A DNA stretch of 33,533 nucleotides, from NCBI GenBank assembly GCA_031258615.1, contig JAIRMP010000121.1, positions 1 through 33,533 on the forward strand. The letters are read 5' to 3'. The DNA is from Spirochaetaceae bacterium. GTDB lineage: Bacteria; Spirochaetota; Spirochaetia; Treponematales; Breznakiellaceae. Both the position numbers and the translations under genes were made by a program. Positions within the stretch are counted from its first letter, which is position 1. Each line of letters begins with the position of its first letter. Shown one piece after another: positions 16,109 through 24,340 of the stretch. Under the pieces are notes generated by a model. It was not told the DNA's origin. It saw only the letters and a list, made by a program, of their open reading frames with translations, and ran no database searches.

Positions 16109-17290
16109 ATGGCGGATAAACTTGACTGGTTAGGCAAACATCTGGTTCTGATACGGCATCTCACCGTGGCTGATGCGGTTAGCATGGAAGGCTACAAAAT
16201 CCCGCCGGATCTGGTTGATGTTTTTGAAGACGTTTCCAGCGCGGAGGAGGCGGCCTTTAAGCTTGCTAAACTGGAGAAGTACAAGAATGTCTGCGAGTTA
16301 ATGGCCTACATCGCCCACCACAGGGCCGGCATCTGGTGGGGCTACCGTTGCGTATGCTCGTTAAACGAGGAACTGCGGTTGAAGCCGCCTGAAGAGTTTT
16401 ACATCAAAAATCCTCCCGCTCCGCCATCCATTCCGGACTACTTTAACTTTGACGTGCCTAAGCCTGACCCGGAGTTGATGTCCGCGATGGGCGCGGCGTT
16501 GGCGGAAGTCAAGAGCGAGGCGGCGGCAGGCGCAGCCCTGCTGAACCCGGCGATGAAGAAGTACGTGGCGGACGGGGTGGCGGAGGCGTTCCACGCCCTC
16601 GAAAAGGCAAACGGAATCCACCCCATGGCGTTGCTTAAAAAGCTGGGGGAACGGATGAAGCAAGACCCCTACGCGATAGACCCCAATTCTCCTGTATTCC
16701 GCATGAAACGGGAACTCAAGGAAAAGGCGGAGGTCGAGCGGGCACGGATCATCGCGGAGGTAAAGGATGGCCACGCCGCTGTGGGTATTACCAGCCCGCT
16801 CAACAAGAACCCCAAGCTGGCGGCTCACAGGGAAAAGTTAAAAGGCAGCGCCCTTGCCGCCGTATACCGCTGGGCAAGCGCCCCGAACGAGGAGAACAGC
16901 AAGTCCTGCCTTGACATAGGCAACGAATGTACCGGCGCCCCGGAGGGGCTTCTCGCGCTTTCCGCGTTCTGGGCATTCGGCAATCTGGCCCCCAAGTTGG
17001 ACAGGGTTATCCCCACTCCGCCCGGACTTGCCGCCAACGGCCTGGACAAGGTGCTGCTGATGTGCGCCGTTCAGCAGGGCGGTATACGGAAGGTAAAGGA
17101 ACGCTACGAACTGTACTTCAACCTGGGGGTGGATGTGTTGAGCGGCAAGGACAACTGGGAAGAAAGCCTTGCCCTAGGCAAGCCGCCGCATGAAGAACCG
17201 TTAGCAATGAACAATGAACAAGGCGCGGATGGCAAGGAACAAGGGGGCGGCAACGACGGCTATAAACGCTGGAAGCCCCCGGCAGGGTAA
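16109..17290 (+). CDS. Cassette 1 gene 3: conserved 'MADKLDWL' family protein (unknown function)
   Basis: 393 aa from ATG 16109, which aligns with the paralog starts (MADKLDWLGKHLVLIRHLTV). It shares N-terminal (CELMAYIAHHRAGIWWGYRC) and C-terminal (EENSKSCLDIGNEC...LSAFWAFGNL...PPGLAANGL...LLMCA...RKVKERY...YKRWKP) blocks with 19807-20946 and 23180-24340. Confidence 0.7.
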   Translation: MADKLDWLGKHLVLIRHLTVADAVSMEGYKIPPDLVDVFEDVSSAEEAAFKLAKLEKYKNVCELMAYIAHHRAGIWWGYRCVCSLNEELRLKPPEEFYIKNPPAPPSIPDYFNFDVPKPDPELMSAMGAALAEVKSEAAAGAALLNPAMKKYVADGVAEAFHALEKANGIHPMALLKKLGERMKQDPYAIDPNSPVFRMKRELKEKAEVERARIIAEVKDGHAAVGITSPLNKNPKLAAHREKLKGSALAAVYRWASAPNEENSKSCLDIGNECTGAPEGLLALSAFWAFGNLAPKLDRVIPTPPGLAANGLDKVLLMCAVQQGGIRKVKERYELYFNLGVDVLSGKDNWEESLALGKPPHEEPLAMNNEQGADGKEQGGGNDGYKRWKPPAG

Positions 17291-17384
17291 ACGCGGCTGG
17301 CCGCGATAACGGCTTTTCTAGCGCGCCAGAAACCATTTTGCCATGCGCCTTTCCGCGTCGGCAAATCGTAAAGGAGTTTAGACT

Positions 17385-23160: not shown

Positions 23161-23179
23161 CGTTTAAGGAGCATGGATA

Positions 23180-24340
23180 ATGGCGGATAAACTTGATTGG
23201 TTGAATAAACATCTGGCAATGTTGCGGTATATCACGCTCATGGATGTTGTTGAAAAGGAAGGGTATAAGATCAGACCGGACCTTGCGGACTTTTTCGTGG
23301 GGGTCAACACTGTGGAGGAGATGGTTTTTAAGTTTGCGGGTATGGGCCGTTTTAAGTGCGCCTGTGAACTCATGGCCTACATCGCCCACCGGCGGGCGGC
23401 TGTGTGGTGGCTCTACCGCTGTATTCATTCCTTACTCGAAGAGTTAGCGGAGAATCCCGCGGTTGAACGGGACATTGCCGACATCGGCATCAGTTTTGAA
23501 CCAACCGTGCCGGATTTTGCCAAGGTGGAAACGCCCAAAGCGGACCCTGAAATGATCGCGTCTATGAAGGCAAAACTCGCGGATATGGAAGCGGATTATC
23601 AAAAGGCCAGGGCAGTGGCGGATCCCCAGATGCTCGGCCTTGTGGAGGAAGCGATGGAAGTCGCCTACCAGGAGTTTAAGAAGGTCCACGGCATTCACCC
23701 TCTGGACCTGATTAAAAAATTGGGAGAAAGGATGGAGGAGGATCCCCATCCCATCGATCCTGATTCCCCCCTTTTCAAGGCCGCGGACGAACTCAAGGCT
23801 AAGCTCCAAACGGTGCGGAAGGAAACGGTGGACACGATTAAGTCGGTGATCCCGCCCAAGGTGCCGGCGCACGAAAAAAAGGTACGGGATGACGCGCTTT
23901 CCGCCGTGTACCGCTGGGTTGCCGCCCCGGACGAGGAGAACAGCAAGGCCTGCCTTGACATAGGCAACGAATGTCCGGACACACCGGCGGGACTGCTTTC
24001 GCTCTCCGCTTTCTGGGCGTTCGGCAACCTGATGCCGGGCGGCAAGCAGGTAATCCCGGCTCCGCCCGGCCTTGCCGCCAACGGGCTGGTACAGACGCTC
24101 CTGATGTGCGCCCTCCACAAGGGCGGGACGCGGAAGGTAAAGGAACGCTACGAGGTCTACTTCAACCTAGGGGTGGAGGTGATGAGCGGCACGGACAACT
24201 GGGAAGAAGGCATTGTTACAGGCAGAGCGCCCCACGAAAATTTGAGCGCTCCGGCAAACGTCCCTCCGGCTGGTGGCGGCGCCCCGCGAGGCGATGGAAC
24301 GGCGTACAAACGCTGGAAGCCGGAAAGCCCGGGACCGTAA
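23180..24340 (+). CDS. Cassette 3 gene 3: 'MADKLDWL' family protein
   Basis: AAGGAG lies 8 nt upstream. The product is 386 aa and is a paralog of 16109-17290 and 19807-20946. Confidence 0.7.
   Translation: MADKLDWLNKHLAMLRYITLMDVVEKEGYKIRPDLADFFVGVNTVEEMVFKFAGMGRFKCACELMAYIAHRRAAVWWLYRCIHSLLEELAENPAVERDIADIGISFEPTVPDFAKVETPKADPEMIASMKAKLADMEADYQKARAVADPQMLGLVEEAMEVAYQEFKKVHGIHPLDLIKKLGERMEEDPHPIDPDSPLFKAADELKAKLQTVRKETVDTIKSVIPPKVPAHEKKVRDDALSAVYRWVAAPDEENSKACLDIGNECPDTPAGLLSLSAFWAFGNLMPGGKQVIPAPPGLAANGLVQTLLMCALHKGGTRKVKERYEVYFNLGVEVMSGTDNWEEGIVTGRAPHENLSAPANVPPAGGGAPRGDGTAYKRWKPESPGP

Follow-up and report, generated by a model that had tools for sequence, protein, structure and literature searches.

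Here we analyzed the 33,533-nucleotide stretch of Spirochaetaceae bacterium DNA deposited as contig JAIRMP010000121.1 (assembly GCA_031258615.1; hereafter the window), in which a complete type VI secretion system (T6SS) cluster encodes three paralogous proteins, D1, D2 and D3. Each is encoded by the last gene of a three-gene cassette that opens with a gp5-like spike needle. All three belong to the Pfam family DUF6931 (PF22011), but carry a long insertion within the domain. We tentatively propose that they are putative spike adaptors or chaperones that are not themselves secreted, in which the DUF6931 core would dock on a shared part of the spike and the insertion would handle the extension of the cognate needle. 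An initial annotation, made from the letters of the DNA alone, had described a family of unknown function; the family is in fact already catalogued, and D1–D3 match it at 66–86 bits against a cut-off of 27 (E 4e-18 to 4e-24). DUF6931 is a catalogued yet uncharacterised family of helical proteins, and what is said below of the function of D1–D3 rests on prediction.

An insertion splits the DUF6931 domain of D1–D3

The three open reading frames (ORFs) reported by the initial annotation are all present (Table 1). Their products exceed the PF22011 gathering threshold, and a precomputed PF22011 match exists for every listed homolog. D1 is 52%–53% identical to D2 and D3, which are 70%–71% identical to each other. 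With a paralog match at E 4e-178 and 433 database homologs, the similarity is well above chance. The closest named homologs are proteins from metagenome-assembled genomes (MAGs) of termite-gut Treponema and Spirochaetaceae, at no more than 82% identity; for D3, the closest relatives are a termite-gut Treponema MAG protein (82%) and a metagenome protein in ENA (89%). An origin of the window in an organism of this kind is therefore most likely. The D1 reading frame is open from a TTG at 16094, and we favored the ATG at 16109 as its start because the MADKLDWL N-terminus is kept in all paralogs and homologs.

Instead of a contiguous DUF6931 domain of ~145 positions in a protein of ~190 amino acids (aa), D1–D3 give a match split in two, with profile positions 41–144 aligned to residues ~231–334 of the window proteins. 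Searching 1.8 billion representative proteins with a profile returned 500 relatives at E ≤0.001, many of which are ~190 aa long and align only to query positions ~1–90 and ~235–345. Comparison of the long and short DUF6931 alignments by hhalign gave a probability of 99.2% over the C-terminal block. The spacing between the motifs WW...C and W...P.(D/E) is 20–25 residues in the short forms and 159–230 in the long forms (individual values for D1–D3 in Table 1). The additional 140–205 residues of the long forms, ~140–170 in the window proteins, are helical and occupy a single loop, which connects the WW helix to the W...P.(D/E) helix. D1–D3 are thus DUF6931 members with an insertion, and hence a sub-type of the family. 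The three conserved blocks noted initially were found as written in all three proteins; however, the first two and the third are the two halves of one domain rather than separate units, and the variable middle third is not a linker but the insertion within that domain.

Structures were predicted for monomers of D3 and of one short member. The AlphaFold2 model of D3 is all-alpha, with a mean predicted local distance difference test (pLDDT) score of 73 and 84–95 in the core; the helices of its insertion, modelled at lower confidence (pLDDT 45–75), span residues 99–105, 123–146, 149–170, 174–185 and 197–223. The last 30 residues form a disordered Gly/Pro tail (pLDDT <50) save for the terminal YKRWK peptide, a motif that within the cluster is confined to the DUF6931 proteins. 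The model of the short member, built from a 73-sequence alignment, has a pLDDT of 93.8, a predicted template modeling (TM) score of 0.89 and ten helices, and contains an ordered 19-residue non-helical stretch that bears the most conserved motif, S.GS..P...P.VPP. In these models, the DUF6931 domain is a compact bundle of about ten helices with an ordered, Pro-rich and highly conserved loop.

Fold and profile searches for known relatives turned up no analogue in PDB or BFVD. Searched against PDB, the D3 model gave no meaningful match (best E 1.4) and the short-form model a best E of 0.2 with low TM-scores; the latter had no meaningful match in BFVD either (best E 0.099, TM 0.36). Among PDB sequences, the long-form profile found none at E ≤1, and the short-form profile only two chance-level matches at E ≤10 (E 1.1 and 3.2). 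A relaxed Pfam scan of the 73 short members yielded chance matches only besides DUF6931, NCBIfam held nothing meaningful for D1–D3, and a Pfam scan of ten longer DUF6931 proteins detected no second domain. In the literature, DUF6931 is named in one paper, in passing, and a search on termite Treponema T6SS, split VgrG and duplicated tssC found nothing relevant.

The remaining features of D1–D3 agree with the initial annotation, which had seen neither a signal peptide, a transmembrane helix nor a catalytic motif. No segment reaches a membrane-helix score, as the maximal 19-residue Kyte–Doolittle mean is 1.0–1.2 and none exceeds 1.22; Pfam and NCBIfam scans revealed neither a catalytic motif nor a marker of known effectors. 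The paralogs are under purifying selection (dN/dS 0.19–0.28). Synonymous divergence (pS) between them is 0.30–0.47 in the C-terminal block, versus 0.7–0.96 in the N-terminal block. Recent gene conversion alone was rejected as an explanation of the conserved C-terminal block, given that its DNA copies are only 73%–81% identical; therefore, selection has been the main force keeping the block, perhaps alongside some homogenisation of older date.

DUF6931 genes are positionally locked to spike genes

In the window, the VgrG spike is split: one gene encodes a gp27-like hub, and three others encode alternative gp5-like needles. Three cassettes follow the hub gene on its 3' side, each composed of a needle gene, a gene of ~130 aa and a long DUF6931 gene, the last of which is translationally close-packed behind the other two. 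A scan of one genome per species, made with the DUF6931 protein, found 54 related loci: in termite Treponema and Spirochaetaceae, in MAGs of gut and rumen Alphaproteobacteria, in a Victivallales MAG and in Succinivibrio dextrinosolvens. The order established by tblastn is ClpV, PAAR-like, gp27 half, one to four cassettes of needle, 130-aa gene and long DUF6931, and then TssJ, TssK, TssL and TssM. One copy per cassette, as the initial annotation stated, is true in the window; among the related loci, the 130-aa gene lies within 300 nt upstream of 58 of 66 long DUF6931 ORFs. For 47 of these 66, a needle ORF also directly precedes the 130-aa gene, and most of the others end at contig edges. Co-occurrence was also checked in the reverse direction, from the needle: this small test gave five metagenome loci, and all three with enough flanking sequence contain a long DUF6931 gene. 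The split hub/needle arrangement is kept in 50+ related loci of Treponema, gut Alphaproteobacteria, Victivallales and Succinivibrio, a distribution that points to horizontal transfer of this kind of T6SS between gut anaerobes. In one Treponema MAG (L009, 5306–5914), truncated needle and DUF6931 fragments lie between the PAAR-like and hub genes and look like a decayed cassette.

The short forms were examined in 10 distinct loci, from soil and other metagenomes, an NCBI assembly, plasmids of Vibrio crassostreae and V. tubiashii, Azospirillum and Aureimonas. All 10 lie in or beside T6SS genes. A plain VgrG (662–739 aa) is encoded directly upstream of the short DUF6931 gene (~190 aa) in eight loci, and a plain PAAR protein (86–99 aa) directly downstream in seven; in Azospirillum, the DUF6931 gene comes first in an operon that continues with TagH-TssK-TssL-TssM-TagF-PAAR. 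By the Pfam families on record, no toxin domain is visible in the VgrG and PAAR genes beside the short forms of these loci; therefore, the core domain has a spike-related role independent of a fused toxin. Across phyla, DUF6931 genes keep a fixed position beside those of VgrG and PAAR. In four of the short-form clusters (L060, L062, L063 and L065), the usual TssB–TssC pair is accompanied by a TssB–TssC fusion or by two sheath genes of TssC type.

Planctomycetes provide a second lineage of long forms. Their DUF6931 proteins of 436–461 aa carry an insertion at the same loop, without detectable similarity to the Treponema insertion, and are encoded directly behind a VgrG of 1022–1080 aa, ~300 residues longer than the VgrGs linked to short forms. 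One of these clusters has two VgrG + DUF6931 pairs followed by PAAR, TssK, TssL and TssM, and another locus is an orphan pair of extended VgrG and DUF6931. The long forms are found only beside spikes with C-terminal extensions, be they split needles or these 1022–1080-aa VgrGs. Thus, in two independent lineages, the insertion occurs with a spike extension and is missing without one. The planctomycete proteins (L071 5110–14727, L072 4712–9349 and L073 5924–10666) further end in a different conserved peptide, ..RSGFGR.., after a disordered tail, which parallels the YKRWK peptide of D1–D3.

Covariation with the needle and a proposed role of D1–D3

The initial annotation had remarked that this protein stays conserved while the spike tail changes, and had suggested that its middle third could provide needle specificity. 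Both ideas were examined in 37 complete cassettes. In median pairwise identity, the DUF6931 N-terminal core (0.60) and C-terminal core (0.70) exceed the insertion and s130, the type of 130-aa protein encoded in cassettes 2 and 3 (both 0.51), and the needle N-terminal region (0.35); the needle tails have essentially no similarity (median normalised bit score 0.04). The protein is indeed conserved where the tails are not. Partial Mantel tests, which remove shared ancestry incompletely, showed that the insertion follows the needle tail given both core halves (r = 0.38, p = 0.0005), whereas the C-terminal core does not follow it given the insertion (r = −0.10, not significant). The C-terminal core instead follows s130 given the insertion and the N-terminal core (r = 0.55, p = 0.0005). 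Although s130 and the N-terminal core lie nearer to the needle gene, their correlation with the needle is weaker, and mere physical linkage therefore does not account for the pattern. In alphaproteobacterial loci with several cassettes, the core halves are 79%–89% identical and the insertion ~52%; in the exceptional pair with alike needles (0.71/0.42), the insertion reaches 0.82. The window shows the same ordering in weaker form, with 57%–86% identity in the core and 35%–61% in the insertion. The suggestion of needle specificity thus gains comparative support, to which the planctomycete insertions beside extended VgrGs add; the pattern fits a specificity module either of an adaptor or of an immunity protein.

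Based on these data, we propose a putative model for D1–D3. Each protein would act in the cytoplasm as an accessory factor, either adaptor or chaperone, that serves a single needle of the T6SS spike. Its core and Pro-rich loop would dock on a part that all spikes of the cell share, such as the β-helix end of the needle, the gp27 hub, PAAR or s130. The insertion would bind the partly hydrophobic C-terminal extension of the cognate needle and shield it up to the mounting of the needle on the common hub, so that one machine could serve three alternative warheads. The helper itself would remain inside the cell, and its terminal YKRWK peptide might offer a further docking handle. On the client side, hydrophobic helices are seen in the tails of needles 2 and 3 (two to four hydrophobic 19-mers) and in s130, and none in the DUF6931 proteins.

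Such a division of labor is familiar from known T6SS adaptors. Tap/Tec (DUF4123), DUF2169 and Eag (DUF1795) are small cytoplasmic proteins encoded beside vgrG or PAAR genes; one part of an adaptor touches the spike and a more variable part the cargo, and Eag shields hydrophobic helices. D1–D3 resemble them in gene position, in the layout of conserved and variable parts and in the hydrophobic segments of their presumed clients, as well as in having one gene per needle beside the spike genes, both in the window and in loci of one to four cassettes. However, neither D1–D3 (Pfam, E ≤0.1) nor the 73 short members (E ≤1) match DUF4123, DUF2169 or DUF1795; the D3 and short-form models lack a PDB fold match, and the candidate specificity element of D1–D3 sits inside the domain rather than in a separate terminal domain. 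The short DUF6931 proteins also differ from these adaptors in accompanying spikes without visible cargo. The resemblance is purely functional and positional. With the short DUF6931 proteins of the vgrG–PAAR slot, D1–D3 share a homologous domain, including R..WW...C, W...P.(D/E) and the AFW..G.L.P...PP loop, and the attachment to spike genes inside T6SS clusters; they differ in having double the length, with an insertion of 140–170 residues and a disordered YKRWK tail, and in standing in three copies behind a split needle and a 130-aa gene rather than behind a whole VgrG.

Several points weigh against the proposed adaptor. Its short form stands beside spikes without visible cargo, and therefore the job of the core is not cargo chaperoning as such. 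Pfam and PDB searches found no sequence or fold likeness to any known T6SS adaptor. The Mantel tests leave some shared ancestry, and the cassettes come from few clades. Given the lower C-terminal pS, part of the conservation among the paralogs may stem from past homogenisation. Finally, the covariation of insertion and needle tail is equally expected of a cognate immunity protein, and the orphan planctomycete pair has no other candidate immunity gene adjoining.

It is unlikely, though worth serious weight, that D1–D3 are general factors of spike or baseplate assembly (‘Tag’ proteins) required at every firing, with the insertion a passenger or stabilising element devoid of needle specificity. 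The company that the short form keeps, plain VgrG and PAAR without cargo, agrees with such a role, as does the strong conservation of the core across phyla. The gene slot recalls Burkholderia T6SS-5, whose VgrG-5 has a C-terminal extension and whose cluster has the same run of TssE-F-G, ClpV, VgrG, accessory genes, PAAR-like and TssJ-K-L-M, with TagA/B-5, TagB-5 and TagC-5 as the accessory proteins. TagA/B-5 is reported to be essential for Hcp secretion without being an effector (PMC6335564). Nevertheless, those Tag proteins have pentapeptide repeats and DUF3540, neither of which D1–D3 match in Pfam, so the slot alone is common. A general factor also sits poorly with a copy number of one per needle rather than one per cluster, with an insertion that covaries with the needle tail and with the restriction of that insertion to spikes that have an extension.

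We consider it rather improbable that D1–D3 are cognate immunity proteins, in which the insertion would neutralise a toxic C-terminal domain of the upstream needle to protect sister cells and the core would act as a scaffold. The gene does lie downstream of a putative toxin-bearing spike, the insertion covaries with the needle tail, and the orphan pair has no other candidate immunity gene. A Pseudovibrio DUF6931 gene downstream of vgrG, encoding a short homolog, has moreover been labeled ‘putative DUF6931/SsdA-like immunity’, as a suggestion without test (bioRxiv 10.64898/2026.06.19.733351). No usable PDB or BFVD analogue was found, however, and the SsdA-like label is therefore unsupported; nor did PDB searches, by sequence or by fold, link the family to an immunity protein of known structure. 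Short forms occur beside spikes and PAARs without a visible toxin domain, that is, not only with a cognate one, and the core remains 60%–70% identical across cassettes with unrelated needle tails. Furthermore, the tails of needles 2 and 3 look membrane-active, for which a soluble protein without signal peptide or transmembrane helix would be in the wrong compartment. The initial preference for an adaptor, chaperone or loading factor over immunity is partly supported: the family is tied to spike genes and to no particular toxin, but covariation with the needle tail would be shown by a cognate immunity protein too.

Least credible is that D1–D3 are secreted, either as effectors carried as cargo or as a detachable component of the tip that rides out on the needle, to which YKRWK would attach it. 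Adjacency to spike genes, a conserved terminal peptide behind a flexible tail and the fact that an anti-eukaryotic effector would need no adjacent immunity gene speak for it. Against it, the family is conserved across phyla and habitats to a degree unusual for effectors, D1–D3 have neither a catalytic motif nor a recognised marker of effectors, and the Vibrio coralliilyticus T6SS2 secretome reports no cluster-encoded non-structural protein, although a DUF6931 gene in that cluster is not established.

Returning to the putative adaptor, four results are new here: the consistent spike linkage of DUF6931 across phyla, the recognition of the long proteins as insertion variants of this family, the association of the insertion with extended spikes in two lineages independently, and the needle cassette of three genes that a T6SS with split VgrG carries in gut anaerobes. 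A wider proposal, possible but more doubtful than the role of D1–D3 themselves, is that DUF6931 constitutes a family of T6SS spike adaptors that spans phyla, has so far escaped recognition and has a fold absent from solved structures. Its loop would be a plug-in site into which separate lineages have inserted unrelated helical modules matched to spike extensions, and the needle, s130 and long DUF6931 genes would form an exchangeable ‘warhead cassette’ that lets one split-VgrG machine of gut anaerobes fire alternative needles. Matching of spike and cargo in T6SS is understood for few adaptor families only, and DUF6931 fills the VgrG-to-PAAR slot widely, in plasmids of oyster-associated Vibrio, plant-associated Azospirillum, soil Planctomycetes and termite and rumen gut bacteria. 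Should the core dock on the spike and the insertion recognise the needle, this would be a simple model for one machine with several interchangeable needles. DUF6931 could also mark spike-borne effector domains that lack a recognisable toxin motif, and our analysis suggests that an immunity label should not be the default annotation of DUF6931 genes.

Composition of the T6SS cluster

Every large ORF between 2.7 and 31.5 kb lies on the + strand, and together these ORFs make up the complete cluster (Table 1). A rubrerythrin gene upstream (1278–1868) and ABC-transporter permease and ATPase genes downstream (31809–33214, opposite strand) mark the ends of the T6SS island and are consistent with an anaerobic host.

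Table 1. Positions of T6SS genes, cassette genes and DUF6931 segments in the window
Feature	Position	Strand	Basis or remark
TssA, TssB, TssC, Hcp, TssE, TssF, TssG, ClpV (T6SS core, in order)	2701–12567	+	Pfam E 3.8e-9 to 1e-129; ClpV via ORF list and synteny
Divergent PAAR-like tip protein, 97 aa	12564–12857	+	Pfam PAAR_motif E 3.5e-5, 24.4 bits, below cut-off 27
gp27-like hub, N-terminal half of split VgrG, ~405 aa	12850–14079	+	Pfam Phage_GPD E 2.2e-15; NCBIfam VI_Rhs_Vgr covers residues 22–185 only
gp5-like needle 1, 529 aa, own C-terminal domain	14104–15693	+	Sub-threshold Phage_base_V, DUF2345, TssI_Fran
Gene 2 of cassette 1, 130 aa, divergent type	15695–16087	+	14% identical to the other two
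Long-form DUF6931 D1, 393 aa, cassette 1	16109–17290	+	PF22011 E 4.1e-18, 66.3 bits vs cut-off 27, in two stretches
D1 helical insertion, approx. residues 92–241	16382–16831	+	171-residue motif spacing; 35%–37% identical to paralogs there
D1 C-terminal YKRWK peptide	17261–17275	+	Counterpart of the D3 peptide
gp5-like needle 2, 669 aa	17385–19394	+	Sub-threshold gp5-like matches; 3–4 hydrophobic 19-mers in C-terminal domain
Gene 2 of cassette 2, s130, 130 aa	19404–19796	+	Conserved family; no Pfam match
Long-form DUF6931 D2, 379 aa, cassette 2	19807–20946	+	PF22011 E 3.1e-22, 79.6 bits
D2 helical insertion, approx. residues 92–232	20080–20502	+	162-residue motif spacing; helical, low model confidence by homology to D3
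D2 C-terminal YKRWK peptide	20914–20928	+	Counterpart of the D3 peptide
gp5-like needle 3, 566 aa	21067–22767	+	Sub-threshold gp5-like matches; hydrophobic residues 400–418, 527–550
Gene 2 of cassette 3, s130, 130 aa	22768–23160	+	64% identical to cassette 2 copy
Long-form DUF6931 D3, 386 aa, cassette 3	23180–24340	+	PF22011 E 4.4e-24, 85.7 bits
D3 helical insertion, approx. residues 92–232	23453–23875	+	162-residue motif spacing; AlphaFold2 pLDDT 45–75; covaries with needle
D3 C-terminal YKRWK peptide after disordered Gly/Pro tail	24305–24319	+	Y376 and W379 invariant, 35 homologs
Lipoprotein (TssJ position), TssK, TssL, TssM	24370–31453	+	Pfam VasE, DotU; lipobox-like N-terminus; order as in related loci

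The three needles have an N-terminal region of ~330 aa in common, and their tails are unrelated. In six related loci (L007, L013, L019, L022, L025 and L039), the needle and s130 have between them a separate ORF of 150–180 aa that resembles the tail of needle 2; the tail may sometimes be its own gene, or the needle may be frameshifted. The s130 proteins of cassettes 2 and 3 have an N-terminal hydrophobic helix, a repetitive C-terminal half rich in Ala, Glu, Thr and Lys (also in loci L001–L052) and a C-terminus, ALRTKAGASDIExKALKMT, that is near-invariant across phyla. Gene 2 of cassette 1 is unrelated to s130, and a 125-aa gene similar to it stands beside a needle-1-type tail in another Treponema MAG (L045, ~2360–2740); gene 2 is therefore of at least two types, which match the type of needle tail. 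A hidden Markov model of s130 gave one weak, compositionally biased match (10.5 bits) among the repetitive tails in which the extended planctomycete VgrGs end. The needle tail and s130 together may be equivalent to a VgrG extension, for which this match is a hint only and no evidence by itself.

The PAAR-like gene is present in a single copy per cluster, however many needles there are, and usually lies between ClpV and the gp27-like gene, i.e., upstream of the hub and not behind the spike. Its product is 72%–93% conserved in most related loci, where it is the best-conserved of the spike genes, and 48%–56% in the two most divergent clusters.

Two alternative-frame ORFs on the + strand, at 20598–21047 and 23971–24918, share a near-identical start, MSGH.GG...RFLG.RQPDAGRQAGN..., and overlap the C-terminal block of D2 and D3, respectively. 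They are by-products of conserved DNA, and the true downstream gene is that of the lipoprotein, from ~24370.

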